From Oceanispirochaeta sp. (lineage in GTDB: Bacteria; Spirochaetota; Spirochaetia; DSM-2461), in the NCBI GenBank assembly GCA_963663385.2, contig CAXXXD010000002.1, positions 992,001-1,056,000 of the forward strand: 64,000 bases of DNA, in the 5' to 3' direction. The translations under genes were made by a program, and so were the position numbers. Of the stretch, positions 20,876 to 47,078 are shown piece by piece (positions within the stretch are counted from its first letter, which is position 1; every line of letters begins with the position of its first letter). Below the pieces are notes generated by a model. The model searched no databases, was not told the DNA's origin, and saw nothing but the letters and a program-made list of their open reading frames with translations.

Positions 20876-21829
20876 ATGAATCCGCTTGTTTTCGATATTT
20901 ACAAAATGTCAGCCCATGACGGGCCGGGGATGAGAACAGTGATATTTCTGAAAGGCTGCCCCCTCAGATGCCGGTGGTGCCATAATCCGGAGAGCTTCCG
21001 TGCTTCTCCGGAAATCTGGGTCTATCCCGAGAGGTGTATCGGATGCGGCCAGTGCCTGGAGTCCTGCCCGGAAGGTGCTCTGTCATTTGATCAGAAGAAG
21101 CGGCCCCTGTTAAACCGGCAGCTCTGTACAGGCTGCGGCCTGTGCTCGGCTGTCTGTCCGGCAAAAGCCCTGGTTGATATAGGTAAATCCTGCTCAAAGG
21201 ACGAGCTTATGAAAATAATTCTGAGGGAAAAGACCTTTATGGATGAAACGGGCGGGGGCGTTACCTTTTCCGGCGGGGAGGCTCTTCTCTATCCCGGGTT
21301 TCTCAGTGAAATGCTGAAGGCCTGTAAAGAGGTCGGGGTTCATACGGCAGTGGATACCTGCGGGGCGGTTCCCTGGGAGAGCCTGGAAAAGGTTCTCCCT
21401 TTTACGGATCTTTTCCTCTATGATCTGAAAATACTGGATCCGCGGGAGCATAAAAAATATACGGGTCTGGGTAACAGGAGGATCCTGTCCAATCTGGAAA
21501 AGCTGAATCCTGTTCTCAGGCGGGAGAAGAAGACACTCTGGATCCGGACTCCCCTGATCCCGGGAGCTACGGACGGTACGGCTAACATCAGGGGCATTGC
21601 CGAATACATCAAAGCTAAACTGGTTCCTCTGCCTGAAAGGTGGGAACTGTGTGCTTTCAATCCTCTGGGCGAGGAGAAATACAGACGGCTGGATCTGCCA
21701 TGGGAGTATAAGAGGGGGTTCATGCTGGAGCAGAAAGCGGCAGACTCCCTTCTGCATACGGCAGGAGAGGTTTTCAGAGGAGCGGGTGAAGCCGGAATTG
21801 TCCGGCTTACAGGTCTGACTGCCTCCTGA
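20876..21829 (+). CDS. Glycyl-radical enzyme activating protein (radical SAM with 2x[4Fe-4S] ferredoxin insert)
   Basis: HDGPG.RTVIFLKGCPLRC.WCHNPES, CIGCGQC...CP, CTGCGLC...CP, GGVTFSGGEAL. Confidence 0.96.
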   Translation: MNPLVFDIYKMSAHDGPGMRTVIFLKGCPLRCRWCHNPESFRASPEIWVYPERCIGCGQCLESCPEGALSFDQKKRPLLNRQLCTGCGLCSAVCPAKALVDIGKSCSKDELMKIILREKTFMDETGGGVTFSGGEALLYPGFLSEMLKACKEVGVHTAVDTCGAVPWESLEKVLPFTDLFLYDLKILDPREHKKYTGLGNRRILSNLEKLNPVLRREKKTLWIRTPLIPGATDGTANIRGIAEYIKAKLVPLPERWELCAFNPLGEEKYRRLDLPWEYKRGFMLEQKAADSLLHTAGEVFRGAGEAGIVRLTGLTAS

Positions 21830-23465
21830 GGGATTCCTGGTATTCAACAGGAGTTATCCCCATGGCCTTGTGGAAGTTTCTGAAAAAGTAACTCCTGCTG
21901 GTGAAGCCTACGGCAATCCCGACCTGTCCCGCATTCAGGGAACTGGTTTTAAACATATGACAGGCTCTGTCTATACGTGTCCTGTTCAGGTAGAAGGAAA
22001 AGGACTCTCCCGCTTCTTCCCTGAACAGCTTCCCCAGATAGGAAGCACTCATCTGGAACTGCTGGGACAGGGTTTTCAGTGAGAGCGGCGCCGAGTAATT
22101 CTGATCTACATAATTGATCAGTCTGCGGGCAATGCTGCTGTCAGAACGTTGTATCAGTTCTTCAGAAATCGCCAGAGACAATTTCCGCAGCCAGTCTATT
22201 AGATCTTCCGGAGATTTCTGTTTAAACAGCTGTCTATGAAGGTTCGCATATCCTCCGGTTAGACTCTCCTTATCCAGTTCCTCCTTTTTAACAAGCGAGA
22301 GAAGATCGGAAAGAATTTCAATCAAAAACCCGATACAGTACTCCCTGTCTGCTGCAGGGTGGTTGGTATAATCCATGAGCAGTCTGTTAAAAAAGTGACT
22401 GATAAGGGTTGTACTCCCTTCTATAATACCGCATATCAGATCATCTGTTTCAATTTCCCCGAAAGGCGTGTCTTCCCTTACAAAGCGGTCAAGGGATGCC
22501 TTGTCAATTATCCGTACGGGCAGGTAGGTAATCGGTTCAATCTCCAGGCCGTTGAACCAGTCTACAGCTGTTTTAACGGGCAGGGTTCCGTCCTGAACAG
22601 GATCCTGCCAGGTTATGGCATTCAGGCTGCCGTTTCGCAAAAGGGCAATCCCAACGGGTGTGCTCCCGTTGGCAACCCGGATCAGATCGGCTCTGCCATA
22701 CCGCGCCAGAGCATCGTTTATGCCCAACTGGCTTGTATTGTCATCCGCACTGATAATTCCCTTCAGTTTCGTTCCGTGTTTTACAAGCCAGGACAGCACC
22801 ATGTCGCATGTTTTCTGTCTGTTCAGCCCGGCCGAAGCCATTTCAAGCAGCTTCATACCCGGAGCACATTCCGCGAGTTCCGTTATGGCTCCCCATGCCC
22901 TGGCGTAATAGGGGGAGGTCCCCGGCAGGTGGGTAACAATGGCATAGCCGCCTTCATGGTTCATCAAACGGGCAAAGTGCCGGCTCAACTGCCTGGTCTG
23001 TTCCCAGTCATCCGGACCGGTCCAGGAGAGGATGTAGGGAAAACCGTCATCCTCCGGGAGCATATTGCTTGCAATGACAGCTATGCCGGCTTCATAGAGT
23101 CGTCTGTACAGGTAGGAACTGTCTTCATTGCTTTCCGGCATCAGTATAACAATGTCAGGCTTATCTTCGATAATGGCTTCAACCTGCTGATCCTGGAGTT
23201 CCGGATCCCACCCGGCATTGTAGATACTCAGCACCATTCCCTTTTTTAATGCCGCCTCACGGAGTCCCCGTATATATTCTCTCTGATAGGGGTGATCTCC
23301 CGCCAGCAGGGCAGCTATCCGTTTCCCCTCCGGTCCTGTTTCAGGGGGAGGCGGCTGCCTTTTTTTTCCGATATGCCAACCGGCATATTCCTTGTCATAC
23401 CAGTGTTCAGGCCTGGTTTTCGGGTATTCAGTCGGTTCTTCCGGACGGGGAGGGATGAATTTCAT
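21807..23465 (-). CDS. Fusion regulator: sugar-binding (RbsB-like) domain + AraC HTH (paralog 1)
   Basis: N-terminal HWYDKEYAGW, WTGPDDW; C-terminal LSLKTLS...SASYLGKLFREE.G..F, VGF....YF...F.K..G.TP; no signal peptide or TM helix. Confidence 0.85.
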   Translation of the reverse strand: MKFIPPRPEEPTEYPKTRPEHWYDKEYAGWHIGKKRQPPPPETGPEGKRIAALLAGDHPYQREYIRGLREAALKKGMVLSIYNAGWDPELQDQQVEAIIEDKPDIVILMPESNEDSSYLYRRLYEAGIAVIASNMLPEDDGFPYILSWTGPDDWEQTRQLSRHFARLMNHEGGYAIVTHLPGTSPYYARAWGAITELAECAPGMKLLEMASAGLNRQKTCDMVLSWLVKHGTKLKGIISADDNTSQLGINDALARYGRADLIRVANGSTPVGIALLRNGSLNAITWQDPVQDGTLPVKTAVDWFNGLEIEPITYLPVRIIDKASLDRFVREDTPFGEIETDDLICGIIEGSTTLISHFFNRLLMDYTNHPAADREYCIGFLIEILSDLLSLVKKEELDKESLTGGYANLHRQLFKQKSPEDLIDWLRKLSLAISEELIQRSDSSIARRLINYVDQNYSAPLSLKTLSQQFQMSASYLGKLFREEAGESFSFYLNRTRIDRACHMFKTSSLNAGQVGIAVGFTSRSYFFRNFHKAMGITPVEYQESLRRQSDL

Positions 23466-23674: not shown

Positions 23675-23870
23675 TCATAGGCTTGTGGATTGATACAATG
23701 TTCTAAACATCGTTTAGAACAGCCAGGTTACTGTTCGCCATTTTTACTGGTCTCCGAGACCGTACAGGAGAATGAAGAGCCGTGACCGAAACATTCAATG
23801 GTCTTCGAGACCGGATAGGAGAATGGAATCAATTCACCGTACAGGCGCTGTTTTAGGCAATAGGAGCGAA
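23675..23870 (+). ncRNA. Candidate IS110 bridge RNA (target-binding loop ~23741-23770, donor-binding loop ~23792-23821); ends approximate
   Basis: 5' hairpin TGTTCTAAAC-atc-GTTTAGAACA, then two modules 51 nt apart of the form [8-nt guide]-GGTCT(C/T)CGAGACC-G-[8-nt guide]-AATG. Their guides match the reconstructed target and donor junctions. Confidence 0.75.
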
Positions 23871-23873
23871 GGT

Positions 23874-24986
23874 ATGAAGATGAGTATCGGAGTGGATCTG
23901 CACAAATCCCAGTTAACAGTCTGTTTCCTGAGTGATGATAGAAGCATTTGTGAATCAGGAATGTATCCGACCTCTGAGGACGGTTACAGAGCATTTCTTG
24001 AGAAAGCAGTGTCCTATACAGAAGAGGGCCTTGATGTTAGGGCTGCAGTGGAATCAACAGGAAATGCCCGGTTCTTCCGTAACAAGCTATTGCTAGCAGG
24101 GATTGAGGTGGTGGTTGTGAATACACTGAAATTCAAAGTTGTAAATGAATCAGTGAAAAAGACGGATAAGCATGATGCCAGAACTCTAGCAGAGTTCTTG
24201 GAAAAAGATATGCTTCCCGAATCACAGCTTTGTTCTCAGGAGAGTGAGGATATCCGTAGAGTTCTTAAATCCAGAACTATCCTTGTTAAATCAGTCGTAT
24301 CTTTGAAGAATCAGGTTCACGGACTGCTTCTAGGGTATGGAATTGAAACAAAAAGAGCTGCGCTGCAGAGTAAAAAAGAAAGGCAGCGCATCCTCATCGG
24401 TCTCGTGGACCATAGGAGTTTCGGAAGCGCTGCCAAAGCGATAGAACCGCTGCTTTCTACGATAGATCAGGTTTCGAACCAGGTCAAGCAGTTAGAGAAA
24501 GTCCTGCTGGAACTTGTAAAGGAAGATGAGGATGTACAGTTATTGCAGACGATCCCGGGAGTCGGATTGATAACGGCATCGACTATTAGGGCCTATACGG
24601 ATGATATCAAGCGGTACGCCAGTGCCAAGAAGTATTCGGCTTATGCCGGTCTTGTACCATGGGTGCAGAACTCCAATGAGACGATTCATCATGGGCATAT
24701 AACAAAGAGAGGGGCTGTAGAACTGAGAACGGCATTTGTTCAGTGTGTTATGGGAATGGTTAGAACTCGGAAAACGACTGGCAATTACCGTATCATGACG
24801 AAGTACAGAGCGATGAAGAAGAACAAGGGCAGCGGCACGAGTATTATCGCCTCTGCAAGAAAGATGAGTACGGTAGTGTACTCCATATTGAAAACCCGTG
24901 AACCCTTTGATCCGTTGAAGATGGTTCCGGATGATAAGTACTTGAAGATGCAGGCGGCTGCATTCAATGCCGTAAAAACTGGGTAA
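23874..24986 (+). CDS. IS110-family transposase/recombinase (DEDD RuvC-like + Tnp domain)
   Basis: SIGVDLHK (D), AVESTG (E), KTDKHDA (DD), LQTIPGVG, YAGLVP..QNS......G.ITKRG; ATG 23874 follows AGGAG. Confidence 0.95.
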   Translation: MKMSIGVDLHKSQLTVCFLSDDRSICESGMYPTSEDGYRAFLEKAVSYTEEGLDVRAAVESTGNARFFRNKLLLAGIEVVVVNTLKFKVVNESVKKTDKHDARTLAEFLEKDMLPESQLCSQESEDIRRVLKSRTILVKSVVSLKNQVHGLLLGYGIETKRAALQSKKERQRILIGLVDHRSFGSAAKAIEPLLSTIDQVSNQVKQLEKVLLELVKEDEDVQLLQTIPGVGLITASTIRAYTDDIKRYASAKKYSAYAGLVPWVQNSNETIHHGHITKRGAVELRTAFVQCVMGMVRTRKTTGNYRIMTKYRAMKKNKGSGTSIIASARKMSTVVYSILKTREPFDPLKMVPDDKYLKMQAAAFNAVKTG

Positions 24987-25046
24987 TCCGGTTCAATTGT
25001 AAGCTTGTTAATAGGCTTATGATTGACTTTTTATAGGAGTAAAAAA

Positions 25047-26306
25047 ATGACTTCAAGAGAAAGAGTTCTGGCCTCTGTCAACCACAGGTCTCCCGATCGG
25101 GTTCCCATTGACCTCGGCGCTACTCCCAGTTCCGGGATATCGGCGGTGGCCCATAACAATCTGATTAAACATCTGGGCTGGGCGGATTCTCCCACCCGGA
25201 TCTACGATGTGGTGCAGCAGCTTGCCCAGCCTGATGAAAAGCTGATAGAGCTTCTGGGGGTGGATATTCTGGATATTGGCCGGACCTTCAATACGTCTCC
25301 CGAAGACTGGTATGAGATAGATCTTCAGAATGGGGGTAAAGCGCAGTACCCGGTCTGGTTTCGTCCTGTCAAAAATGAAAAAACCGGAGAGTGGGAGGCT
25401 TTTCACCGGACCAGCGGGCGAAAGATTGCGTCCATGCCCGACAGCGCCACCTTCTATGATCAGTCATACTTCCCCTGGGTGAACGGATACCCGGACAGCC
25501 GGCAGGGGATGGAAGATGCTCTGGATGAGGCAATGGACCATATCCTCTGGTCCCATCTTGTGCACAGTCCCTGGGACCATGCGGGAGATGCGGGTTTTTT
25601 TGATACCCTCAGAAGCAACACCCTTGCCCTGCGGAAATCCAGCGATAAAGCCCTGATGGTTGTAAACGGGTGCAACCTTTTTGAATGGGGCACCTTTCTC
25701 CGCCGTATGGATAACTTTCTGATGGACCTCTATGTGGAACAGGATAAAGTAGCCATGCTGATGGAGCTGCTCATGGAACGGCATATGAAGGGCCTTGCCA
25801 AAACCTGCGAAGCCGTGGGGGATACGGTTGATATTTTGCGTTTCGGTGATGATCTGGGTATGGATTCGGGGCCTTTTATGGGACTGGAAGTGTACCGGGA
25901 CCTTTTTCATGAACACCGTAAGACTCTCTGTTCCCATGTGCATCAGAACAGCAGCATGAAAACCTTTCTCCATACCTGCGGGTCCATGCATCAGTATATA
26001 CCCAGCCTGATAGAGGAGGGAATGGATATTATCAATCCCGTTCAGACCAACTGCCGGGATATGGAGGCGGATAAACTGAAAGAGGAATTCGGGAAGGATA
26101 TCGTTTTCTGGGGCGGCGGAATGGATCCCCGGGTAATTCTGAATACGGGAACCCCGGAACAGGTCCGGGAAGAGGTCCGGAAGCGTCTGGACGTATTTAC
26201 TCCCGGGGGCGGATATGTTTTCAACAATATTCATAATATTATGCCCGATGTGCCGCCGGAAAATATCCTGGCCATGTTTGAGGAAGTTCAGAAATATCAG
26301 CTGTAG
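25047..26306 (+). CDS. Uroporphyrinogen decarboxylase (URO-D)-fold protein, MtaA/CmuA-like putative methyltransferase
   Basis: MTSRERV.....H..PDRVPID, GDDLG, FLHTCG, NPVQ, FWGGG, GGGYVF...HNI.PDVPPENI. Confidence 0.85.
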   Translation: MTSRERVLASVNHRSPDRVPIDLGATPSSGISAVAHNNLIKHLGWADSPTRIYDVVQQLAQPDEKLIELLGVDILDIGRTFNTSPEDWYEIDLQNGGKAQYPVWFRPVKNEKTGEWEAFHRTSGRKIASMPDSATFYDQSYFPWVNGYPDSRQGMEDALDEAMDHILWSHLVHSPWDHAGDAGFFDTLRSNTLALRKSSDKALMVVNGCNLFEWGTFLRRMDNFLMDLYVEQDKVAMLMELLMERHMKGLAKTCEAVGDTVDILRFGDDLGMDSGPFMGLEVYRDLFHEHRKTLCSHVHQNSSMKTFLHTCGSMHQYIPSLIEEGMDIINPVQTNCRDMEADKLKEEFGKDIVFWGGGMDPRVILNTGTPEQVREEVRKRLDVFTPGGGYVFNNIHNIMPDVPPENILAMFEEVQKYQL

Positions 26307-26429: not shown

Positions 26430-27737
26430 TTACCGGCTGGCCGCTCTTTCTGCTTCTTCCATGGCTATTTTCTCCCAGTCCCACAGCCTTTCGGGTTTGT
26501 AGCTGACCGTGGAAATATCCTTCATGATCAATTCCACATGACACTGGCCTTCGGTTTCATCCAGAAACTCCCGGATCTGCCGCCTGGCTTCGTCCCTGTC
26601 CCAATCACTGGTGGCAAATACGGCCGGGTTGGGTTTTCGGCTGATCACATACTCATCCCGGATTTCAGCAATGGCTTTTTTCGTATTGTTCCAGGGGCTG
26701 CAGGAAATCTTCCGCAGGTTGGGGATCTTCCGCAGCTGTTCCATTTTACCGGCCAGGGGTTCACAGCAGCCGTAATAGGTCATACCCCAGCGCTCAAGCC
26801 ACCTTAAATCGTGTTCGATAGCAAAATCCCAGTGCATCTCAGGGGAAACATCCGAGAAAATCTGGGCATTGGAACAGCCCCACATATTGATTGGTTTTAC
26901 ATAATCCGGATCCGGATTCTCACCGGGCAGCTGTGATGTGTATCCGTAACCGCCGGATCCGATCCTTGTATTGTTGCAGTCCAGTGAGAGCAGGTTCTGT
27001 TCCACAAACTGATCCAGCTCCACCATCCAGGCATCAACCATGCGGTCTACCGCATCATGAACCATCCGGGGACGGAGGACCAGATCCATCATGGCCTCCT
27101 GAACACCCCACCAGCGGATCAGGTAGTCCCAGGGGGTAAACCAGATATGGGTCTGTCCCACCTCTTTTACAGGCATCAGGTCGCCAAAGAGGCTTTCCAT
27201 GGCATCCCTGCCGTAAGCGGTAGCCTCCCTGTTATGGGTTACGATGGGCATTTTGATTTTTTCTATATCCTCGGGATTGGATATCTGAATTTTGAAGTGA
27301 CGGGAGACAATATCATTGGCATCATCCGTTCTGGCAATATCTGTCTCTTCCAGAATACCGAAATCGGTGCTGTGAATAACCTTGGGACATTCAAACCAGG
27401 GGTTTACAACCATATCTCCCCGCATATGCTCCCACTGGTAGATGGTCTTTCTCATCTGATCTTCCATATTCCGGGCCCATGTTCCCTTGCAGCGAAGGGT
27501 CAGCTCATCATTCACATTCATCTCGTGCCAGGGAATCTCATTGATCCAGACCATGGGTCTCCGGGATTTCAGGTCATTCAGATCTGTCCAGAGAGCGGCT
27601 TTCTCTTTATGAACAGGATCCGAGGCAATTGCCGTGATTTTCTCACCAAGTTCCCTGAGTATGCATTTTTCTGTGTTGTCCAAAACTATCGGTTCAGCCA
27701 CCGGGGCGGCTTCTCTATGGCTGGGGTCATGCAGCAT
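26430..27737 (-). CDS. Conserved hypothetical protein, probable distant URO-D/methyltransferase-fold member
   Basis: 435-aa ORF; WWG....MMDL...P..VH, VSP.M...F, YYGCCEPL, RKIS.SPW, SRKPNP motifs reminiscent of divergent URO-D-like proteins. Confidence 0.55.
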   Translation of the reverse strand: MLHDPSHREAAPVAEPIVLDNTEKCILRELGEKITAIASDPVHKEKAALWTDLNDLKSRRPMVWINEIPWHEMNVNDELTLRCKGTWARNMEDQMRKTIYQWEHMRGDMVVNPWFECPKVIHSTDFGILEETDIARTDDANDIVSRHFKIQISNPEDIEKIKMPIVTHNREATAYGRDAMESLFGDLMPVKEVGQTHIWFTPWDYLIRWWGVQEAMMDLVLRPRMVHDAVDRMVDAWMVELDQFVEQNLLSLDCNNTRIGSGGYGYTSQLPGENPDPDYVKPINMWGCSNAQIFSDVSPEMHWDFAIEHDLRWLERWGMTYYGCCEPLAGKMEQLRKIPNLRKISCSPWNNTKKAIAEIRDEYVISRKPNPAVFATSDWDRDEARRQIREFLDETEGQCHVELIMKDISTVSYKPERLWDWEKIAMEEAERAASR

Positions 27738-29567: not shown

Positions 29568-29600
29568 AACTGTGATTTTCGGATAATGTAAAGGATATCA

Positions 29601-36619: not shown

Positions 36620-36943
36620 ATGAAGCGATTTGGACAGGTTATTAAAGTGGATCCCGCCGGGATTGAGAAATATAAATATCATCACGCCAATCCCTGGCCT
36701 GAAATCAATGATATGATAAAGCAGTGCAACATCAGCAACTACTCCATCTATCTGAAGGACGATTACCTTTTTGCCTATATGGAGTATACGGGCTGTGATT
36801 TTGAAGCGGATATGGCCAAAATGGCGGCAGATCCCAAAACACAGGAGTGGTGGGATCTGATGAAGCCCCTGCAGCGGCCTATTGATACCCGGAAGGAAGG
36901 CGAGTGGTGGGCCGATATGGAAGAGGTATACCACCTGGACTGA
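36620..36943 (+). CDS. rhaM: L-rhamnose mutarotase family protein
   Basis: KY...HA.PWPE, NYSIY, LFAYMEY, TQEWW..M.P.Q, MEEVYHLD. Confidence 0.88.
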   Translation: MKRFGQVIKVDPAGIEKYKYHHANPWPEINDMIKQCNISNYSIYLKDDYLFAYMEYTGCDFEADMAKMAADPKTQEWWDLMKPLQRPIDTRKEGEWWADMEEVYHLD

Positions 36944-37025: not shown

Positions 37026-37043
37026 CGATAGTTCGAGGGGGGG

Positions 37044-37908: not shown

Positions 37909-38943
37909 CTACTGAATGCTTTTGAACAGAGCTTCTACATTCTCGGGGGGAATATCGGGAAGGATGGCTTCATGGCTGGGTGAGAGAACCAGGCCTGTAG
38001 GAAATATGCTTTTCAGTTCTGCAACCTTTTCCTCTATCTCTTTTTTTGTGCCCTTAACCAGAAGGTACTGGGCATCCACACCGCCGCAGAACGCAACCCT
38101 GTCGCCGAAGTCATCCTTAAGCCCCTGAGGTTCCATCCCCGCTGCCAGGGCCTGTATGGGATGAATCACATCCACTCCCGTATCAATCAGATCGCTGATT
38201 ATCGGCCGGATGGCACCGCAGGAGTGGTGGATCACTTTCAACCCGTAGCTGTGAGCCTGCTCCACAAACCGTTTTGTCCCCGGCAGTACCAGGTCCCGGA
38301 TCAGATCGGGAGAGAGAAGCAGGCTGTCCTGGCTACCCAGATCATTACCGATCAGTACGGCGTGAACCCTTCCTCTGGCAGCCTTGTAGAAGATCTCATT
38401 GGCTTCCAGATAGAACTGAATGATCCGTTCATTAACCGCTTTATACATTTCCGGTTCCAGCATCATTTTAATCATGGCTGTTTCCATACCGAAGGCGGCG
38501 CTGGCATCCTGAAAATGGGCTGACCACAGTACTCCCATAATAACCTTGTCTTTGGGGGCTGCTTCAATCTCTCTTTCCAGTTCATCAAGATCTATGTACT
38601 TTTTGGGATCGGGCCAGTCAAAATCTTCAACCTTCGCCGGATCGGAATAATCCTGGAAAAAGCCGGGTGCCGTCAGGGTTCTCTCAAAATCATCATGTTC
38701 TTCGCCCGTATTTCTGGCAAAACTGAGAGCCGTATAGATGGCATCCGATACGGGGGAGTGGTAGGGGAGTTCAATAGGATAGATATCATCGTTGATGGCA
38801 GTGGTCATCTCTTTGATATCATTTATTTTAAAATACTCTTTCAGGGGCTGCTGAGCTTCCGGAACAGGAAGACCCAGCCAGCTGGCAGGGTAATCTACAG
38901 GTTTTTTATCTATCGTGGCAAAAAAACGTTCAATATGTGTCAT
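37909..38943 (-). CDS. URO-D-fold protein, putative methyltransferase
   Basis: GNDLGSQ, HHSCG, HPIQ, FCGGVD.Q, SPSHEAILPDIPPENV. Confidence 0.85.
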   Translation of the reverse strand: MTHIERFFATIDKKPVDYPASWLGLPVPEAQQPLKEYFKINDIKEMTTAINDDIYPIELPYHSPVSDAIYTALSFARNTGEEHDDFERTLTAPGFFQDYSDPAKVEDFDWPDPKKYIDLDELEREIEAAPKDKVIMGVLWSAHFQDASAAFGMETAMIKMMLEPEMYKAVNERIIQFYLEANEIFYKAARGRVHAVLIGNDLGSQDSLLLSPDLIRDLVLPGTKRFVEQAHSYGLKVIHHSCGAIRPIISDLIDTGVDVIHPIQALAAGMEPQGLKDDFGDRVAFCGGVDAQYLLVKGTKKEIEEKVAELKSIFPTGLVLSPSHEAILPDIPPENVEALFKSIQ

Positions 38944-39156: not shown

Positions 39157-39164
39157 TTAAATAA

Positions 39165-40325
39165 TCAGCTGATATCCCACTCCCCCAGATCCAGGGGATA
39201 GACACCGTGCTTTTTAACAAGATTATAGACAAACTCATAGCGTTCGGCGCTTACATTGCTGGGGACAGAGTGGTCCGACTGTACGATGTATCCTCCGCCC
39301 CTGGCGGCATTCAGTTTGGTCATCACCTCTGCTTTCAGTTCATCCAGGGGGGCATCAGCCCATTTCATAACATTTATATTTCCGCAGAAACCCATATCAT
39401 GCCCGAAGATTTTCCTTTTATCGTTCACATCCATACCGGATTTGGCCTCCAGCGGGTTGTAGCAGTCCAGACCGATTTCTATCAGATCAGGCCAGATGGC
39501 TGTGGAGTTCCCGCAGCCGTGGTAGATAACCGGAAGATTTTTACTGTGGGCAAAGTCTATCATGTTTTTTACCGCCGGTTTGAAATACCGGCGCCAGTAA
39601 TCCGGTGAAAAGAGCATCCCGTTAACATAGGCCACATCGCCCCAGATAACAAAACCGTCCAGATTGCCATCAGCCGCTTCGTACTGAGCTTTCATTATTT
39701 CGAGGTTAAAAGCGGAAACACGGTTCAGGAAGGTTCCCAGTTCGTCAGGGTAGAGGGCTGACCAGAGCAGAAGGTTTTCAGTCCCGATTATCCGCCATCC
39801 CTCTTCCATTGTTTCGCAGACTCCTCCGTAAACGGGAAAATCGGGGTACAGGGATTTAACCCTTTCGGAAAAGGCCGGGATATTCCTGGAGATAACTTCC
39901 GAAACACCGTTTATCTGGTCGTCGCCGCTTTTGAAATACCGTCTTTCATCCCAGGGATCATCAAATTCAAAAGCCAGCATTTTCTCTACCGTGTCAGTTT
40001 CGAATTTTTCAAAATAGGGCATCTGGGCTCCCTTTTTATGGCGGACCACCGCTTCAAATCCCGTCCGGACAATCTGTTCGTCATCCGTATCCTTTACCAT
40101 TTCAAAGGGTTTGATATGAGGATCCATATTGGGATTGGTACAGATCCAGTCCAGGTTATAGTAATAGTACGGATCCGCATCTGAGGCCAGTCCAAGCTCT
40201 TCCCTCCAGCGTTCAATAAAGGTCAGCCAGAAAAAATCGCTGATCGGGACCCTGTCCGCTTCTTCATGGCGCAGGGTTTTATTCATTCTGTCCAGTTTTA
40301 AAAGGCAATTGTCTGTTCTATTCAT
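39165..40325 (-). CDS. URO-D-fold protein, putative methyltransferase
   Basis: H.E.DRVP, WGDVA, YHGCGN, NPLE, FCGNI, GGGYI.QSDHSVP. Confidence 0.85.
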   Translation of the reverse strand: MNRTDNCLLKLDRMNKTLRHEEADRVPISDFFWLTFIERWREELGLASDADPYYYYNLDWICTNPNMDPHIKPFEMVKDTDDEQIVRTGFEAVVRHKKGAQMPYFEKFETDTVEKMLAFEFDDPWDERRYFKSGDDQINGVSEVISRNIPAFSERVKSLYPDFPVYGGVCETMEEGWRIIGTENLLLWSALYPDELGTFLNRVSAFNLEIMKAQYEAADGNLDGFVIWGDVAYVNGMLFSPDYWRRYFKPAVKNMIDFAHSKNLPVIYHGCGNSTAIWPDLIEIGLDCYNPLEAKSGMDVNDKRKIFGHDMGFCGNINVMKWADAPLDELKAEVMTKLNAARGGGYIVQSDHSVPSNVSAERYEFVYNLVKKHGVYPLDLGEWDIS

Positions 40326-40519: not shown

Positions 40520-41719
40520 TTACCATTGGGCGGGGTAGAACTCATTAACATCGGCAGAGGTAATAATATGCCTGGGCAGATAGGATACAGGCTCCAGGCT
40601 GACTCCGTTCAGGAACTGGGCCGCCGAATAGGCTGCCAGGGCCCCATCTCCCTCGGCAGACTGATAGGTAAGGGCTGTTACTTCACCGGCTTTTACGGCG
40701 TCCATTCCGATTTTTGAATTCCCTGCGGCCACAATGGCAATATCGTGTCGTCCGGCGGCATTTACCGCTTCCAGGGCGCCGGTCATGGAAAATCCGTCTC
40801 CCGCCAGGATCAAACCCTGCAGTTCATTGCCGTATTTTGTTATCCATGAGGCCACCAGCTGCATGGTCCCTTCCGCCTCGAGGTTAGCCGTATCCATATC
40901 CAGCAGCTGCATTTCAGGCGCGTATTCCGCCAGTTCCGTAATAGGGGCGTAGGTCCGGGCAAAGAAGGGAGAGGAACCCGGCATATGCCTGATAATGGCA
41001 TACCCCCCGGTCTTATGCATTGTATCAGCCAGTGTACGGGCCAATAGACGGAACTGTCCCCAGTCATCCGGTCCGGTCCAGGCAAGACAGTATCGCATGG
41101 CGTCATCCGTCGGAATGGTATTGGAAGCAATCAGGGGAATCCCCGCTTTGGTTATTTTCCGCATTAAAGGGGTGCATGCTGTTGCATCAACGGGGGCCAT
41201 GACAATGATATCCGGTCGGTCATTAATGGCCTGGTCTGTCTGCTGAGCCTGAAGGTCTATATTCCAGTTGGAGTTGAATACTTTTACATTCATCTCATAA
41301 GCGGCTGCCACTTTCTCAAATCCTCTCAGATACGCTGTCCAGTAGGGATGATCTCCAGCTTTGAGTAGTACCAGGCTTTTCCCTATGGCACCTGTGCCGG
41401 GGGAGGCCGGCATGGGGATCTTCGGGGCTGTCCATCCGGCGTATTCAATGTCCCACCAGTGTCCCGAATCGGTCAGGGGCAGGGACTTCGGATCTGCCGG
41501 CCGGGCAGGGATAACCTTATTGACTCCGGGGAGGATCAGGGGATGACCATCGGTTCCTTTCAGGTCCAGAACATTTACCGAGCGGGACCGGTTCAGATTC
41601 TCCAGATTATCAGACAGGGAATTTTCTGTTCTGCCGGTGCAGCTGAAGAAAAGAAGCAGGGACAGGATAACAGGGACAGTTGATAAAATCTGCCGGATCT
41701 GGGTTGAGAACTTATTCAT
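40520..41719 (-). CDS. Sugar ABC transporter substrate-binding lipoprotein (paralog of 31549)
   Basis: Lipobox-like LLFFSC, HWWDIEYAGW, HPYW, WTGPDDWGQF, ends PAQW. Confidence 0.9.
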   Translation of the reverse strand: MNKFSTQIRQILSTVPVILSLLLFFSCTGRTENSLSDNLENLNRSRSVNVLDLKGTDGHPLILPGVNKVIPARPADPKSLPLTDSGHWWDIEYAGWTAPKIPMPASPGTGAIGKSLVLLKAGDHPYWTAYLRGFEKVAAAYEMNVKVFNSNWNIDLQAQQTDQAINDRPDIIVMAPVDATACTPLMRKITKAGIPLIASNTIPTDDAMRYCLAWTGPDDWGQFRLLARTLADTMHKTGGYAIIRHMPGSSPFFARTYAPITELAEYAPEMQLLDMDTANLEAEGTMQLVASWITKYGNELQGLILAGDGFSMTGALEAVNAAGRHDIAIVAAGNSKIGMDAVKAGEVTALTYQSAEGDGALAAYSAAQFLNGVSLEPVSYLPRHIITSADVNEFYPAQW

Positions 41720-42707
41720 AGGAGCCTCCTTTGTCGATTTCTTTCATAAGAGAGGCCCTCCGCCCCTTCAGCCTGTTGTAGTGGAAGTTGGATACCGATT
41801 CATAAAGGACAACCACTGCCAGAATAAGCCCGTTGATAAATATCTGGACTTCAAATCCCCAGCCGAAGCAGCCTATCCCGTTATTAATGATAACCAGAAG
41901 CAGAACCCCCAGGTAACTTTTAAAAATACTGCCCCGGCCTCCGCTCATAAGGCTGCCGCCGATTATTACCGCAGAAATTACCTGCATAAGGGTTTTACTC
42001 CCGAGAATGGCATAGGATGTCATAGAGGAGATACTCATGGCAAAAACGGCTCCGCCCATGGCAGCCAGTCCGTCACAGATCATAAAACCTGCAATGATGA
42101 ACCGGTCTTTGGGGAGACCGGCCAGCCAGGCTGTTTCAGGACTTCCTCCAATCATAAAAAAGGATCGGCCTGTTCTTGTCTGGGTCAGAAAAAACGAAAA
42201 TATCAGTACCAGCAGCATTGTGATGACTGTCATTGGTGTAAGGATGAAGAGGAAGGAACGGTCCAGCCAGTCGGCCAGGGTGAAGTCATCCACATAAAGG
42301 GAACCTCCCCGGCTGTAGAGATGCATTATCCCAAAGGTAATAATCTGTGTTCCCAGGGTTACAATAAAGGAACTCAATTCCGCCTTTACAACCAGAATAC
42401 CGTTGATAAAACCAATAACTATTCCCGACAGGACGGCTATGGCAAAACTGGCTGTCCAGCCCAGCTGGGGTTGGAAGCCTATACAGAGCATACCCGAAAG
42501 CATGAGAACAGCACCGATGGAGAGGTCCAGCTGTCCCAGTATGATTATGATCGTGAATCCGATCGCGGCTATCCCCGACAGACTGGAACCTTTGAGAATA
42601 GACCGGATGTTATAGACAGAAAAGAAATTCGGGGCAAACAGAGAGAACAGCACAAAGAGGAGGAGGAGAAGAATTGCTACCTTATGTTTGCGTATTGTGC
42701 TATGCAT
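41712..42707 (-). CDS. Sugar ABC transporter permease
   Basis: GQLDLSIG, TRTGR....IGG..E.A.LAG, VIIGGSL.GGRGS. Confidence 0.9.
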   Translation of the reverse strand: MHSTIRKHKVAILLLLLFVLFSLFAPNFFSVYNIRSILKGSSLSGIAAIGFTIIIILGQLDLSIGAVLMLSGMLCIGFQPQLGWTASFAIAVLSGIVIGFINGILVVKAELSSFIVTLGTQIITFGIMHLYSRGGSLYVDDFTLADWLDRSFLFILTPMTVITMLLVLIFSFFLTQTRTGRSFFMIGGSPETAWLAGLPKDRFIIAGFMICDGLAAMGGAVFAMSISSMTSYAILGSKTLMQVISAVIIGGSLMSGGRGSIFKSYLGVLLLVIINNGIGCFGWGFEVQIFINGLILAVVVLYESVSNFHYNRLKGRRASLMKEIDKGGSYE

Positions 42708-43665
42708 CCAGTTCTTCCTTCAGTTTGTTCCGTCTCTGATGCATGGCAATAACAGAGATAAAGATAATCCCGGTAATGATATTCTGCTGAAAATAGTTAA
42801 TGCCCATAAGGGTCAGAATATTGCTTAAAAGCCCTATCACCAGAACGCCGCCCATAACGCCCCGGATTGTTCCAATACCCCCTGACTGCATCATCCCTCC
42901 CAGGACGACCGCAGTGACTGCTTTAAAATCATACCCCTGGCCCAGGTAGAAAACTCCCATTTTGTTCATACTGGTAATAAATATCCCGGCAATGGAACTG
43001 AAGAGCGAGGTAAGGAGGAAGGCATACAGAGTATATCTGGCTGTATTGATTCCGGTAAATTCCGATACATTATGGGATGAACCCAGCAGTCTGAATTTCT
43101 GTCCCAGTCCGGTTTTTGTCAAAATCAGATGGCTTGCCAGAAAAAGGAGCAGCATTATAATCACAGAGAGGGGAACACTGCCCAGGGAAAAACGGAATAT
43201 ACCGACAAACTGCTCGGCTGTTCCCGTATCCAGTCCCTTCTGCTGCAGGATCTGATCCGGATAGAGCTGTGAACTGCTCCATACAAAGCGCATAAATCCT
43301 TCCATAAAGTAGACAACAGCCAATGTCCAGAGGATAGGATTTGCTCTGAGACGACCGATTACGATCCCGTTCATGGCCCCTACAGCCATCCCGGCCATTA
43401 TCCCCAGTACCATGGCTGGTATAAAACCCAGAGGAAGGGAGGCCACCGCAATAATACCGGAAAATGCCATATAGGTGGGAACGGACAGGTCGCACATATA
43501 CCCTGTGTAAACAACAAAAGACATCCCTGCCGAAGCTATCCCCAGAAGAGAGACGGCCCGCAGGATGTTCATCAGGTTTCCCGTGGAGAGAAAGTGGGGG
43601 GAGACAGACATTCCCAGGAGAAAGAGCAGGGCCGCTGCCATATATATGCCGGATTTCCTTATCAC
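42700..43665 (-). CDS. Sugar ABC transporter permease
   Basis: Paralog of 34354 (RAN.I.WTLA, GQGYDFKAVTAVVLGG). GTG 43665 after GGGAG chosen as start. Confidence 0.88.
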   Translation of the reverse strand: MIRKSGIYMAAALLFLLGMSVSPHFLSTGNLMNILRAVSLLGIASAGMSFVVYTGYMCDLSVPTYMAFSGIIAVASLPLGFIPAMVLGIMAGMAVGAMNGIVIGRLRANPILWTLAVVYFMEGFMRFVWSSSQLYPDQILQQKGLDTGTAEQFVGIFRFSLGSVPLSVIIMLLLFLASHLILTKTGLGQKFRLLGSSHNVSEFTGINTARYTLYAFLLTSLFSSIAGIFITSMNKMGVFYLGQGYDFKAVTAVVLGGMMQSGGIGTIRGVMGGVLVIGLLSNILTLMGINYFQQNIITGIIFISVIAMHQRRNKLKEELDA

Positions 43666-43669
43666 GCCC

Positions 43670-45160
43670 CTATACTCCCTCGCCGTTAGCAGCCAGAAGG
43701 ACTGCTTCTTCTGATAGATGGTCACCCTGTATCTCTTCTATAAAATAACCGCTCCGCATAACCAGCACCCTGTCGGAAAGGGAGACAAGTTCAGTCAGAT
43801 CACTGCTTATAAGCAGTATTGTTTTTCCCTTGTCGGCCAGCTCCTGTATGGCCTTATGGATTCCCGTACGGGCTCCGATGTCCACTCCTTTTGTCGGTTC
43901 ATCAAGAATAAAGATCTCCGGAGAGGCTGCCAGCCATTTTGCCAGAAATACTTTCTGCTGATTCCCTCCGGATAGGGTGGATATATCAGATTCCTCCCGG
44001 GGAGGAGAAATATTCAGTTTTTTCATCAGTTCCTTCAACTTTCCCTGATTGTGGTTTTTATTGTAAATCCCCCCGCGGCAGCTTTCATCGATTACGGCGG
44101 AAAGGATATTCTGTCCCACCTCAATCCCGGGAAAAAGACCATCGTTCTTCCTGTCCTCGGAGAGATAGATCATACCGTTTTTTATACATTTCCGGTAGGA
44201 GCCTCTTTTGATCTTTTTCTGATGAATAAGTATCCGCCCGCTGTCGGAAGGATCTATCCCGCTCAGGCTCCGGCCCAGTTCTGACCGTCCGGCCCCGGAC
44301 AGGCCGGCTATCCCCAGGATTTCGCCCTTGTAGGCTCTGAAACTGATATCATGGAAAAAACCGTTGCGGCAGAGGTCGTTTACCCGGAGAGCTTCTTCCT
44401 CTTCTCCCCGAAAGGTATACTCTTTTTGAAACTCTTCAAGGTTCTTTCCAATCATCATATTGGCCAGGGTGGAAGATGTCACCTCATGAACGGCTGTTGT
44501 AATGACTTTTCTGCCGTCCCTCAGAATGGTGATCCTGTCGGCAATACGGAAGATTTCGGGAAGCCTGTGGGATATGTAGACTATGGCTAGACCTTTTTTC
44601 TTCAGGGCATCCACAGCGGTAAAAAGTGTTCGGATCTCTTCGCGTGAGAGAGAAGAGGTCGGTTCATCCATTACCAGTATGGAAGGATTTGTTCCCAGAA
44701 CCTTGGCTATCTCTACCAGCTGGGCTTCATGCTGGGATAGCTCACTTACCGGCGTCATGGGATCCAGATCCAGTCCAACCTGTTCCAGTATCATTATGGA
44801 TTCCTCCACCATGGCCTTCCGGTCGATTCTCAGGTTCCTCTTGCGCGGGAGCCGGCCGACAAGAATATTTTCGGCAATGCTGATAGGCTTGGCCAGGCTC
44901 AGTTCCTGATAGATCATTCCTATGCCGTGTTTAATGGCAACCCCTGGAGAGTTCAGACGGATCTTCTTTCCGTTGATCCGCACCTGTCCTGTATAGTCAT
45001 TATAGGAGCCTGCCAGGATTTTCATCAGAGTGGATTTTCCCGCTCCGTTTTCTCCCAGAAGAGCATGAACCTCTCCCGCTTCAACCTCAAAATCCACCTT
45101 ATCGACGGCGAGGGTTCCGGGGAAGGATTTACTGACTGACTGCATCTCCAGGGCTAACAA
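43670..45160 (-). CDS. Sugar ABC transporter ATP-binding protein
   Basis: GENGAGKST, LSGGNQQK, DEPTKGVDIGA; TTG start after GGAG. Confidence 0.95.
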   Translation of the reverse strand: MLALEMQSVSKSFPGTLAVDKVDFEVEAGEVHALLGENGAGKSTLMKILAGSYNDYTGQVRINGKKIRLNSPGVAIKHGIGMIYQELSLAKPISIAENILVGRLPRKRNLRIDRKAMVEESIMILEQVGLDLDPMTPVSELSQHEAQLVEIAKVLGTNPSILVMDEPTSSLSREEIRTLFTAVDALKKKGLAIVYISHRLPEIFRIADRITILRDGRKVITTAVHEVTSSTLANMMIGKNLEEFQKEYTFRGEEEEALRVNDLCRNGFFHDISFRAYKGEILGIAGLSGAGRSELGRSLSGIDPSDSGRILIHQKKIKRGSYRKCIKNGMIYLSEDRKNDGLFPGIEVGQNILSAVIDESCRGGIYNKNHNQGKLKELMKKLNISPPREESDISTLSGGNQQKVFLAKWLAASPEIFILDEPTKGVDIGARTGIHKAIQELADKGKTILLISSDLTELVSLSDRVLVMRSGYFIEEIQGDHLSEEAVLLAANGEGV

Positions 45161-45296: not shown

Positions 45297-47078
45297 TCAT
45301 TCTCCGCTTCCTCCTGTGTTTTCGATATTCTCCCTGTATTCGGAAGGGTTCATGCCGGTTTGTTTTTTAAATATTCTGTAAAAGTAGCTGGCATCGGTAT
45401 ATCCTGTTTCACGGGCTACTTCATACTCTTTCAAATGCCTGTTCTGCAACAGCTTTTTTGCCTGATCTATACGGATATCATTCAGATAGGCGGAAAAACT
45501 CTGACCAGTCTCTTTTTTAAATATCTGCCCCAGGTAGGCGGCGGATAGATCGTATTTATAGGAAAGGGTTTTCAGGGAGAGTGCTTCCTGTGAGTGGGTA
45601 TTTATATATTCCACAATCCGCTTGATGGGGGTCCGCCCCGGCATTTCCGCCGAAAGATCCGTACAAAAGTCAATAGAGACTTTTTCCAGCCATTTCAGAG
45701 TTTTGCTGAAGGATTTCTGGTGAAAAAGGTAGTTCGCCAGCATGGAGGGATTTGTGCTGATGGAATCTATCCCCCGATTGATCCCTTTTTCGGCAGCCGA
45801 ACTGATAAGCCTGGAAATAATCTCTACCGAAACGCCCCGGCAGTACTCTATGCTTACCAGACTGCATTCGGTAATCTGGTTATAGAGCTCCCTGAAATAG
45901 GCGGAAATCCCGTTCCTGTCTCCCAGCTTAAGGGCGTTTGTGTATCTGGTATAATCCAGAACGGGAACATCATTTTTTTTATTTAAAAAAACATCCACAT
46001 CCTGCTTTGTTATAATATGGACGGGCATATATTTAACGGGAGGTATATCGAAACCGTTAAACCAGTCTACTGCGGTCTGCATGGCAAGTATCCCGTCAAT
46101 GATTCCGGCCTGATAGGTCGTTGCCTGAAGGGTGCCTCTCCGGATATCTTCCAGAGCCTGGGGCGGGCTCCAGTGGGACACATTGATGATATTCTCTCTC
46201 TTCAACTCAATCAGGGCTTTCTTCACACCCTTCTGTACGGTGAGGCTGTCCGACGAAACAATCCCTTTTAACTTGTCTCCATATGTTTTAATCCACCTGC
46301 ATACCTGGTCATAGCTTCCCTTTTCTCCTACACCTGTACTTTTATACTCCAGGCAGGTCATGGCGGGAGCGATTTTTTTCAATTCAGTAATGATTCCCCA
46401 GGTCCGGGCCAGGTCGCAGGAGGTGTCTTCATAGTGGCGAATCAGGGTATAGGAACCCTGATAATCCATCATCCGGGCAAATTCAGCCGCCAGCGCCCGG
46501 GACATCCTCCAGTCATCAGGACCTGTCCAGCTTAATATATAGGGGAGTTCTCCATAATCGGGCACCATATTGCTGGATAAAACGGGAATCCCCCTGTCAT
46601 ATATTTTTTTATAGATTCCTCTGGAACTGCTGATGCTTGTGGGCATATGAATGATCATGTCCGGATTCTTGGCCAGGGCCATTTCGGTAAAATGTATCTG
46701 GGCGTTACTGTCCCAATCCGTATCATAAACTTCCAGCTGAATGTCATGATGATCGGCAATCCTCTGCAGCCCTTTCCGGAAGGCCAGCTGATAGGGGTGG
46801 GAAACCGGCATGTTGCAGATGACTTTCTTACCCTCCGGTCCGTCTGCCGGACTTTCCGGCATGGGCGCTTTCGGAATGCGCCAGGGGGCATATTCAGAAT
46901 CGTACCAGTGCCGGCTGTCCTCTTTGGGATAGATGGAAGGATCATCCGGCCGGGGAGGAATCGAGTAGGATTCATAATCATGTATCAGTATAAGCGGCCT
47001 CTGGTTTTCCAGTTGATCCTCTCCTTTAAAGAATGGGGATATCCTACCATAAGCTGGAGAAAATTGAAAATATATCAC
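45297..47078 (-). CDS. Fusion regulator: sugar-binding domain + AraC HTH (paralog 4); true start possibly CTG 47012
   Basis: HWYDSEYAPW, WTGPDDW, LSLKTLS...SAAYLGQIFKKETG, GY.DASYFYRIFKK.TG..PSEYR. Confidence 0.85.
   Translation of the reverse strand: MIYFQFSPAYGRISPFFKGEDQLENQRPLILIHDYESYSIPPRPDDPSIYPKEDSRHWYDSEYAPWRIPKAPMPESPADGPEGKKVICNMPVSHPYQLAFRKGLQRIADHHDIQLEVYDTDWDSNAQIHFTEMALAKNPDMIIHMPTSISSSRGIYKKIYDRGIPVLSSNMVPDYGELPYILSWTGPDDWRMSRALAAEFARMMDYQGSYTLIRHYEDTSCDLARTWGIITELKKIAPAMTCLEYKSTGVGEKGSYDQVCRWIKTYGDKLKGIVSSDSLTVQKGVKKALIELKRENIINVSHWSPPQALEDIRRGTLQATTYQAGIIDGILAMQTAVDWFNGFDIPPVKYMPVHIITKQDVDVFLNKKNDVPVLDYTRYTNALKLGDRNGISAYFRELYNQITECSLVSIEYCRGVSVEIISRLISSAAEKGINRGIDSISTNPSMLANYLFHQKSFSKTLKWLEKVSIDFCTDLSAEMPGRTPIKRIVEYINTHSQEALSLKTLSYKYDLSAAYLGQIFKKETGQSFSAYLNDIRIDQAKKLLQNRHLKEYEVARETGYTDASYFYRIFKKQTGMNPSEYRENIENTGGSGE

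Follow-up and report, generated by a model that had tools for sequence, protein, structure and literature searches.

Where does a bacterial regulator obtain the domain with which it would sense a sugar, and can the receptor of a sugar transporter be the source? The question is raised by a 64,000-nucleotide stretch of DNA from Oceanispirochaeta sp. (assembly GCA_963663385.2, contig CAXXXD010000002.1, positions 992,001 to 1,056,000 of the forward strand; this whole stretch is called the window). Four of its genes, Reg1 to Reg4, encode proteins in which a domain resembling a sugar-binding protein is followed by a C-terminal AraC-type DNA-binding domain; they lie among two ATP-binding cassette (ABC) transporter operons, ABC-1 and ABC-2, and the two exported solute-binding proteins (SBPs) of these operons, SBP1 and SBP2. 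An earlier note had read the four as one-component regulators built from the locus's own SBP and amplified fourfold. The explanation that we consider probable is that they are cytoplasmic regulators of a spirochaete-restricted family, in which a sensor derived from a transport SBP was placed on a pre-existing AraC module, and that they sense an imported sugar and activate the adjacent transcription unit.

Architecture of the regulators

All six open reading frames (the four regulators and the two SBPs) were recovered intact at the positions in Table 1. Pfam searches identified both Peripla_BP_4 (E = 3.9e-24, 1e-25, 1.3e-24 and 3.8e-18 for Reg1 to Reg4) and HTH_18 (E = 1.9e-16, 1.2e-19, 1.7e-16 and 7.3e-21) in every regulator, and Peripla_BP_4 alone in SBP1 and SBP2 (E = 3.1e-37 and 5.5e-40). 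Peripla_BP_1 matched weakly, at about 1e-3, in two of the four regulators, while Peripla_BP_3 and the LacI-type helix-turn-helix (HTH) domain PF00356 matched none of them. Since Peripla_BP_4 is matched at E values of 1e-18 to 1e-25 against about 1e-3 for Peripla_BP_1, with no Peripla_BP_3, the sensor is of the transport-SBP and not the LacI type; in a sequence search of the PDB, the best matches of the Reg2 sensor were CUT2 SBPs.

The regulators lack signal peptides and transmembrane (TM) segments, as had been proposed (maximum 19-residue Kyte-Doolittle means of 1.01-1.54, none above 1.6); both SBPs have hydrophobic N-termini in the same kind of scan, with a lipobox-like FFSC in SBP2. No histidine kinase, receiver domain (REC; Response_reg) or TM segment was detected in the regulators by Pfam and hydropathy searches. 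These features point to cytoplasmic one-component transcription factors.

An AlphaFold2 model of Reg2 built from 123 family sequences (pLDDT 91.8, pTM 0.74) has a type I periplasmic-binding-protein (PBP) fold, seven helices between sensor and HTH (residues 353-460) and a double HTH. The sensor is a Venus-flytrap domain of ribose-binding-protein type and takes up roughly the first 330 residues. Model and Pfam matches together support the linker of about 110 residues and the C-terminal AraC double HTH described in the earlier note. The N-terminal extension ahead of the PBP fold reaches the same model confidence as the core, with pLDDT averaging 92-97 in 10-residue blocks across residues 21-70. 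Among the Foldseek matches listed for this model (ranks 1-49), all are ribose-binding-type binding proteins, with a best target-normalised TM-score of about 0.9, and none is a full-length structural analogue of Reg2.

The sensor regions of the four regulators and the two SBPs can be aligned end to end, including about 45 residues ahead of the canonical fold, with 49 invariant columns and 35-48% identity to Reg1. The motif WTGPDDW occurs in all of these proteins except SBP1, which has ITAPDDF, and those five are the only carriers among 12,288 stop-to-stop frames of at least 100 amino acids (aa) in the 5.3-Mb genome. H[PH]Y is found in all six at one aligned position. The Pro-rich N-terminal motif that had been reported is real, although its spacing had been misjudged (10 residues, not five, from the third Pro to the Trp); with the corrected spacing it is present in five of the six and in no other frame of the genome, and a looser form retrieves exactly the six. 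Because bit scores among the six range from 235 to 316 and the next-best PBP of the genome reaches 81 bits, the similarity of their sensor regions is far beyond chance.

Origin of the sensor and the output module

A scan of one genome per species yielded 79 loci. Sensor and SBP sequences with 150 bits or more and no fewer than 300 matched query positions, together with five outgroup PBPs from the Oceanispirochaeta genome, were used for a FastTree phylogeny (102 rows), and 55 of these rows, picked to represent every clade, for an IQ-TREE phylogeny under the site-heterogeneous LG+C20 model. All 29 regulator sensors and L016, a regulator cut by a contig end, are recovered as one clade with FastTree (support 96), and the regulators again form one clade with IQ-TREE (approximate likelihood ratio test, SH-aLRT, 98). 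The sister group of this clade consists of three permease-tethered spirochaete SBPs (support 91 with FastTree and 83 with IQ-TREE), and the two together adjoin a clade (97; IQ-TREE) whose members are tethered SBPs from Planctomycetota, Verrucomicrobiota and Lentisphaerota. SBP1 groups with free SBPs of spirochaetes and Bacillota, and SBP2 with tethered SBPs of Planctomycetota and Hydrogenedentota. As the regulators of other spirochaetes share one clade with those of the window and the locus SBPs fall into others, the sensor was not recruited from the SBP genes that now stand beside the regulators; the trees indicate a single, ancient recruitment inside the Spirochaetota, from a lineage nearest to the tethered spirochaete SBPs.

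The idea of a transporter receptor recruited as a cytoplasmic sensor for an AraC output therefore stands, with sensors and the two locus SBPs united in one distinctive family by Pfam, alignment and trees, while its derivation from the locus's own SBP does not. The scenario in which the locus's own SBP was copied on the spot, joined to AraC and multiplied to four in this genome has in its favor that the six proteins are mutually closest within the genome, share motifs found nowhere else in it and are all encoded within 25 kb. Yet the sensors cluster apart from both SBPs, and a tree that holds regulators and locus SBPs in a single clade, the grouping that the earlier note had implied, is worse by 172 log-likelihood (lnL) units (approximately unbiased [AU] test, p = 4e-29; run after the first tree had been seen). 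A tree constrained to unite the four regulators of the window is weakly rejected (lnL difference 44.7, AU p = 0.035), which goes against a local fourfold amplification: the topology is (Reg1,(Reg2,(L001,L003))), with Reg3 and Reg4 on long, deep branches, so that Reg2 joins orthologues from other genomes before it joins Reg1, and Reg2 is 60% identical to its orthologue in another genome of the genus as compared with 48% to Reg1. The paralogues are old, and we regard local duplication as highly improbable. Descent of the whole protein from an ancestor in common with XylR of E. coli, a solved and characterised PBP-fold and AraC regulator with a LacI/GalR-like sensor (PMC3561964; PDB 4FE4/4FE7), is in our judgement less probable still. 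The earlier note had called AraC sensors usually cupin or receiver domains and had omitted XylR, the closest precedent, so the architecture class itself is not new: both XylR, as far as the available part of that report describes it, and the regulators are cytoplasmic, place an N-terminal type I PBP fold before a C-terminal AraC double HTH and are encoded beside a sugar ABC transporter. XylR binds its sugar and controls the adjacent transporter, and a like role is proposed here for the regulators. In the PDB sequence search, however, XylR (4fe4, 4fe7) matches Reg2 over residues 444-563 only, that is, through the DNA-binding domain; the Reg2 sensor is a Peripla_BP_4 domain whose nearest relatives in sequence and fold are transport SBPs, and it nests inside the transport-SBP family in the tree. 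XylR has 392 aa, with its sensor joined directly to the HTH, in contrast to the N-terminal extension and helical bundle of about 110 residues found here. Because the match is limited to the DNA-binding domain, the spirochaete family is an independent fusion and an uncharacterised variant of the XylR-type architecture.

The output half has a relative within the genome. Residues 378-568 of Reg2 match, as one continuous block, residues 581-773 of an AraC protein of 776 aa (31% identity, E = 2e-21), and most of the linker therefore arrived with the HTH as a ready-made, pre-existing output module. The N-terminal part of the 776-aa protein has no Pfam match; a second large AraC protein of the genome (777 aa) bears a dCache_1 domain. 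Folded alone, linker and HTH gave a pLDDT of 91.9 and superimposed on AraC-family DNA-binding domains with VIA Z scores of 16-17 (root mean square deviation 1.2 Å over 102-105 residues). VIA-align comparison of the linker fold with 48,161 chains returned only AAA+ lid-type helical bundles, at Z 7-8 for model residues 5-115, values that helical folds can reach by chance, and a linker-only hidden Markov model search of the genome found one weak extra match (E = 7e-5). An origin of the linker from YesN-type response regulators was considered and rejected, the YesN-like protein of this genome being alignable over the DNA-binding domain only.

Full-length fusions are present in 24 of the 79 loci (26 genes), of which 23 are titled with Spirochaetota taxa and one with 'uncultured bacterium'. 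The remaining loci encode SBPs of this family and come from Planctomycetota, Verrucomicrobiota, Lentisphaerota, Hydrogenedentota, Nitrospirota, Calditrichota, Bacillota (Moorella, Vallitalea) and some spirochaetes. An even sample of the phylum outside the order contained no fusion in 200 genomes and one genome with three tethered SBPs; within the order (38 genomes, one family), 15 genomes have the SBP family and 14 have regulators, in one to four copies. Copy number is highest in genome G000, with four regulators, and a regulator on both sides of an SBP gene recurs in four genomes (G204, G205, G208, G210). A protein database search gave 729 hits; the best 120 of these are proteins of 518-610 aa with PF13407 and PF12833, carry only automatic names (e.g., 'substrate-binding domain-containing protein') and, wherever the source name includes a taxon, are spirochaetal. 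NCBIfam has no model covering the whole protein, and literature searches on AraC and periplasmic-binding-protein one-component regulators, spirochaetes, and Peripla_BP_4 with HTH_18 found no characterised member. The fusion family thus appears to be spirochaete-specific, patchy in its distribution and uncharacterised.

Several other systems use PBP-fold sensors. The LacI/GalR proteins are the textbook case of a sugar-binding PBP fold that acts as a cytoplasmic sensor coupled to a DNA-binding domain; they share this use of the fold with the regulators and differ in having an N-terminal LacI-type HTH, no AraC domain and a sensor from a different PBP subfamily. True LacI-family regulators are also encoded in the window (6385-7479 and 17401-18408). 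Bacteroides BT1754 (PDB 2X7X), found at Foldseek rank 46 with a target-normalised TM-score of 0.85, likewise has a single chain that bears both a sugar sensor of PBP fold and an AraC output. We take it to be membrane-bound, with its sensor in the periplasm and with histidine kinase and receiver domains; the regulators have no TM, kinase or receiver domains. CUT2 SBPs (4yo7, 4rs3, 4rsm, 1drj) share the fold and are the nearest sequence relatives of the sensor, whereas the regulators lack the export signal and the invariant C-terminal QW, are relaxed at 25 SBP-specific positions and have gained linker and HTH. In the three-component XylFII-LytS sugar sensors, a Peripla_BP_4 paralogue of the transporter SBP switches on a sugar ABC operon, according to the available part of a review of SBP signalling (PMC8050422). 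There the SBP is extracellular and signals through a membrane kinase, as opposed to the intracellular, kinase- and receiver-free fusion described here. The final output of the XylFII-LytS route is presumably a YesN-type AraC protein. No cytoplasmic SBP-AraC fusion is described in the available part of the same review (PMC8050422). At one locus of Vallitalea maricola (L041:178-5006), a second SBP of the family discussed here is encoded beside a dCache histidine kinase and a regulator with REC and HTH_18, an arrangement that resembles a three-component solution to the same task; this SBP is the nearest neighbour of SBP1 in the FastTree phylogeny (support 82), with its placement left unresolved by IQ-TREE.

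Binding site, gene neighbourhood and candidate ligand

Conservation was compared between 29 regulator rows and 67 SBP rows at a threshold of at least 90% (Reg2 numbering). Fifty-five positions are conserved in both classes, among them P23, R25, P26, P29, W40, D42 and E44 of the N-terminal extension and, further on, H76, N152, W166-D171, R176, H197, R207, D260, Q305 and D310, a set that we take, by analogy with ribose-binding protein, to form the sugar pocket. Another 25 positions are conserved in the transport SBPs only and relaxed in the regulators (including D75, T80, A81, N103, Q111, Q115, D130, A131, A-G-N-S-K at 284-288, D292, E308 and the C-terminal QW), and just four are conserved in the regulators alone. 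The simplest reading of the 25 relaxed positions is that a transporter-docking constraint may have been lost. Reg1, Reg2 and Reg3 agree at the shared positions except for P77H in Reg3, and the putative pocket is nearly alike in these three and SBP2. Reg4 departs at Q174M, D260S, D278N and G285W, and SBP1 is aberrant at W40M, D42S, W166I, G168A and R176K. There is accordingly little support for four different ligands, except perhaps in Reg4.

Much of the SBP family is covalently tethered to its own CUT2 importer: of 48 long frames from other genomes, 43 begin with a Perm2b-type permease, to whose C-terminus the SBP is joined through a single additional TM helix and a low-complexity linker (examples in Table 1). 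The N-terminal extension comes after the tether in these proteins. Because the untethered, cytoplasmic regulators have kept it, the extension is more likely to be part of the binding domain than of the tether; sequence alignments to 4yo7 start only at Reg2 residue 61, so the extension has no counterpart there.

The mechanism that we propose, by analogy and from this conservation, starts with the sugar that the adjoining ABC systems bring in, or with a closely related derivative, which would bind in the sensor cleft in the cytoplasm. The helical bundle would pass on the closure of the sensor domain to the double HTH, and the latter would then activate the adjacent promoter, as ligand-bound XylR and AraC do. 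Each regulator has a different transcription unit beside it (Table 1). Reg3 precedes SBP1, the ATPase, two permeases and the L-rhamnose mutarotase homologue (rhaM), and Reg4 precedes an ATPase, two permeases, SBP2, two proteins (c and b) resembling uroporphyrinogen decarboxylase (URO-D) and MtaA, and a small AraC gene. Reg2 precedes a gene for a 435-aa protein (unk435), and Reg1 faces URO-D a across an IS110 element, which has probably separated a divergent regulator/target pair.

Table 1. Features of the regulator locus, with Reg2 subdivided by domain. Positions are those of the window, except for the tethered SBPs, which are given by locus.
Feature	Position	Strand	Description
Reg1	21807..23465	-	552 aa; Peripla_BP_4, helical linker and AraC HTH_18; begins right at the IPPRP motif
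Reg2	27858..29567	-	569 aa; architecture as in Reg1; in tandem with and upstream of the URO-D-like gene 26430-27737
Reg2 residues 20-66	29368..29510	-	family-specific N-terminal extension (IPPRP...HWFDMEYAG...GK)
Reg2 residues 67-347	28527..29369	-	type I periplasmic-binding-protein fold, ribose-binding-protein-like
Reg2 residues 348-462	28182..28526	-	all-helical linker
Reg2 residues 463-569	27861..28181	-	AraC-type double helix-turn-helix
Reg3	29601..31319	+	572 aa; same architecture; co-directional with and directly upstream of the ABC-1 operon
Reg4	45297..47078	-	593 aa; same architecture; co-directional with and directly upstream of the ABC-2 operon; most divergent at conserved positions
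SBP1	31549..32724	+	exported binding protein of ABC-1; shortened N-terminal extension, ITAPDDF
ABC-1	32844..36541	+	double-cassette ATPase and two BPD_transp_2 permeases, CUT2 type
rhaM (L-rhamnose mutarotase family)	36620..36943	+	PF05336, E = 1.1e-33; closes ABC-1
Small classical AraC regulator	37044..37901	-	285 aa; end of the ABC-2/URO-D gene string
URO-D/MtaA-like protein b	37909..38943	-	conserved H240-x-C242
URO-D/MtaA-like protein c	39165..40325	-	conserved H269-x-C271
SBP2	40520..41719	-	exported (lipobox-like) binding protein of ABC-2; full N-terminal extension
ABC-2	41712..45160	-	two permeases and double-cassette ATPase, CUT2 type
URO-D/MtaA-like protein a	25023..26306	+	conserved H317-x-C319; IS110 element now between it and Reg1
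435-aa cassette protein (unk435)	26430..27737	-	distant URO-D-like by language-model features
IS110-family transposase	23772..24986	+	inserted between Reg1 and URO-D a; ends 36 bp before the URO-D a start
Tethered-SBP examples	L047:8717-11008; L025:8771-11032		within loci L017-L079

A cassette made up of the CUT2 importer, the rhaM homologue (which fell outside the first list of open reading frames, limited to at least 120 aa) and three to four URO-D/MtaA-like proteins is kept in anaerobes of at least seven named phyla. Counting URO-D-type genes at a threshold of at least 120 bits, the 24 regulator loci include 20 with such a gene, 16 with ABC genes, 15 with rhaM and 13 with the 435-aa gene; the corresponding numbers for the 55 other loci are 36, 48, 30 and 18, so that rhaM is found in 45 of all 79. 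The 435-aa protein has no Pfam or NCBIfam match and clusters with distant URO-D-like proteins in the ESM Atlas (scores 0.97-0.99). In the literature that could be searched, no function has been assigned to the cassette, and a search on URO-D with fucose, ABC transporter or mutarotase returned nothing relevant.

The mutarotase homologue in the cassette points to a pyranose sugar as the ligand. Judged from gene neighbourhood alone, this would most likely be an L-fucose- or L-rhamnose-like 6-deoxyhexose, possibly O-methylated, a best guess prompted by the rhaM, L-fucose isomerase (FucI), kinase, aldolase and fucosidase genes that are linked to the cassette. In Moorella mulderi it is interleaved with genes for L-fucose isomerase, class II aldolase, aldehyde dehydrogenase and bacterial microcompartment (BMC) shell proteins; two Planctomycetota loci have a GH29 alpha-L-fucosidase beside it; and at L014 an FGGY kinase and a class II aldolase are encoded directly upstream of the regulator. 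FucI is present at three of the 24 regulator loci (L008, L012, L054) and at two other loci.

Two alternatives concern what the sensor would bind. It is very unlikely, in our view, that the sensors are ligand-blind relics in proteins that act as constitutive or protein-controlled AraC regulators: several otherwise invariant residues are lost in Reg4, but the 55 positions common to regulators and transport SBPs, together with the strong conservation of W40, E44, Y78, N152, G168, D170, D171, W172, R176, H197, R207 and Q305 across 123 family members, argue for a maintained binding site. A somewhat better case, though one we still think unlikely, can be made for regulators that sense a cytoplasmic product of the cassette enzymes (e.g., a demethylated or otherwise processed sugar), or for paralogues that sense different derivatives. 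At Reg2 position 286, most regulators have Ser where the SBPs invariably have Asn, Reg4 and Reg3 carry the substitutions listed above, each paralogue adjoins its own transcription unit, and 10 of the 14 regulator-bearing genomes have at least two regulators. However, most putative pocket positions are alike in regulators and SBPs, Reg1 to Reg3 resemble one another, and the Asn-to-Ser change would be equally well explained by a lower-affinity version of the same site.

Several observations weigh against cytoplasmic sensing of the imported sugar by a sensor of tethered-SBP ancestry. The sister-group support is moderate only (91 and 83), the pocket is assigned by analogy with ribose-binding protein, and Ser at position 286 in 66% of regulators may mean that they bind another ligand than the transporter does, or bind it with another affinity. 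FucI, kinase and aldolase genes are absent from the window, the single FucI gene of the genome lying about 890 kb away, and the PDB entries of the closest solved SBPs describe them as CUT2 or generic sugar-binding proteins, which we assume to be inositol and polyol binders. Four of the 24 regulator loci (L004, L014, L020, L024) have no URO-D-type gene above the threshold in the fetched flanks; at L014 a later Pfam scan placed one directly after the regulator. No operator was found either: the spacer between regulator and unk435 (seven loci and the window) is conserved only within the close L006/L008/L012/L013 clade, and the best 10-mer, with one mismatch allowed, occurs in four of nine promoter regions, a count also reached in three of 20 shuffles. 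A search for exact 11-mers common to 11 intergenic regions gave one A/T-rich pair only. Promoter-like sites between 27.5 and 47.4 kb numbered 42 against 26.3 ± 4.7 in shuffled sequence, and terminator-like sites 27 against 21.8 ± 5.9, values that are not decisive for operon borders.

Other features of the regulatory DNA can be noted. Reg2 and Reg3 are divergent, with 33 bp (29568-29600) between their farthest possible start codons, and either their true starts are internal (Met5 of Reg2; Met2 or Met10 of Reg3) or their promoters overlap coding regions. G+C-rich palindromes of the type CCCCTC...GAGGGG recur in intergenic gaps (36542-36600, 36960-37043, 39085-39164), one of them as a terminator-like hairpin between the last ABC-1 permease gene and rhaM. 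Long open frames antisense to Reg3 (29598-31043, - strand, 481 aa), SBP1 (31570-32742, - strand, 390 aa) and a permease gene (41637-42752, + strand, 371 aa) are probably non-coding shadows.

Putative sugar O-demethylation and neighbouring genes

The URO-D/MtaA-like proteins raise the further question of what the cassette does with its sugar. In corrinoid methyltransferases of the UroD superfamily, the zinc ligands are His-Cys-Cys or include a carboxylate in place of one Cys, as described in the available part of PMC10418091. The H-x-C motif is kept in each of the three annotated URO-D paralogues, across 13, 27 and 45 sequences (window protein plus orthologues). True uroporphyrinogen decarboxylase is not known to have this zinc site. 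The 'type 1 MGC' MtaA-like clusters are a different system, with no mention of sugar, ABC transporter or spirochaetes in the available part of the source (PMC10418091).

Corrinoid-related genes occur at some of the regulator loci. An MtaC-like corrinoid protein is encoded at five of the 24 (L009, L010, L011, L014, L062), the reductive activase RACo at six (the same five and L020), a pterin-binding methyltransferase at three (L010, L020, L024) and methylenetetrahydrofolate reductase (MTHFR) at two (L010, L024); none of these was found at the 55 other loci. At L010, a single 21-kb stretch holds, by Pfam, genes for the corrinoid protein, a PocR-AraC regulator, RACo, MTHFR and the pterin-binding enzyme, and continues with the fused regulator, the 435-aa gene, URO-D b, a LacI regulator, rhaM, URO-D c, URO-D a and ABC genes. 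In the Oceanispirochaeta genome, corrinoid protein and RACo genes stand together on another contig (C3:249146-253353) with a 440-aa AraC frame between them, in a position equivalent to that of the PocR-domain AraC regulator between the corrinoid protein and RACo at L010:1149-5108. The corrinoid part thus seems to have an AraC sensor of its own, different from the regulators described here.

Together, these genes provide the components of a corrinoid O-demethylase beside a sugar importer and a mutarotase, which suggests sugar O-demethylation. We tentatively raise the possibility, doubtful as it is, that the regulators are sensors of an undescribed anaerobic, corrinoid-dependent O-demethylation of methylated 6-deoxyhexoses. 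Substrates such as O-methyl-fucose or O-methyl-rhamnose of algal or plant polysaccharides would be imported by the CUT2 system with its tethered or free SBP, and the three to four URO-D/MtaA-like zinc-motif proteins would transfer the methyl group or groups to the corrinoid protein, from which the pterin-binding methyltransferase would move them on to tetrahydrofolate. The freed sugar would enter a fucose/rhamnose route, and the regulator paralogues might distinguish differently methylated sugars or the demethylated product. Weighing against demethylation, no corrinoid genes were found in the non-spirochaete flanks or in the window. Carbohydrate demethylation is reported as an aerobic cytochrome-P450 reaction in the available part of PMC6292453; the literature that could be searched, in so far as it was available, contains no anaerobic sugar demethylation, only aerobic P450 enzymes for sugars and corrinoid O-demethylases for aromatic ethers and halomethanes.

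The remaining genes of the window include further metabolic systems. A glycyl-radical enzyme, its activase and a LacI regulator converge on Reg1 (17401-21829), and the same enzyme (more than 1300 bits) adjoins a regulator at L001 and L005. Its assignment as a clear propanediol dehydratase was rejected, since among solved structures the enzyme is closest to PflD-type 'probable dehydratases' (E = 1e-63), and the diol dehydratase 5i2a scores lower (E = 4e-55). At 12618-15629, a homologue of the monomethylamine methyltransferase MtmB (E = 7e-95, read without an internal stop) adjoins a 509-aa multi-TM protein without a family match, and the pair may be a further system for methyl transfer that has a dedicated transporter. 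The genes at 6385-12203, for a LacI regulator, a CUT1 ABC system and a sulfatase, suggest that sulfated glycans are used, and Fur, rubrerythrin and desulfoferrodoxin genes at 62.2-63.7 kb are typical of an anaerobe.

If the regulators are what we propose, the family would be a clean, datable case of a transporter receptor that became a transcription sensor inside the cell, a second such event and one separate from LacI/GalR and XylR. With transport relatives still alongside the regulators, ligand-binding residues, which are kept, could be told from probable transporter-docking residues, which are relaxed. Judging by their genes, the regulators may do in one cytoplasmic polypeptide the job for which Firmicutes use an extracellular SBP paralogue and a kinase (PMC8050422, available part), presumably with a YesN-type regulator, and their sensors would be natural candidates for biosensors of the cassette's sugar, whichever that is. 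The regulators also point to a conserved cassette of anaerobes that is itself the most interesting thing they indicate; an oxygen-independent sugar O-demethylase, if it proved real, would fill a gap in the breakdown of methylated algal and plant sugars in anoxic sediments and guts.

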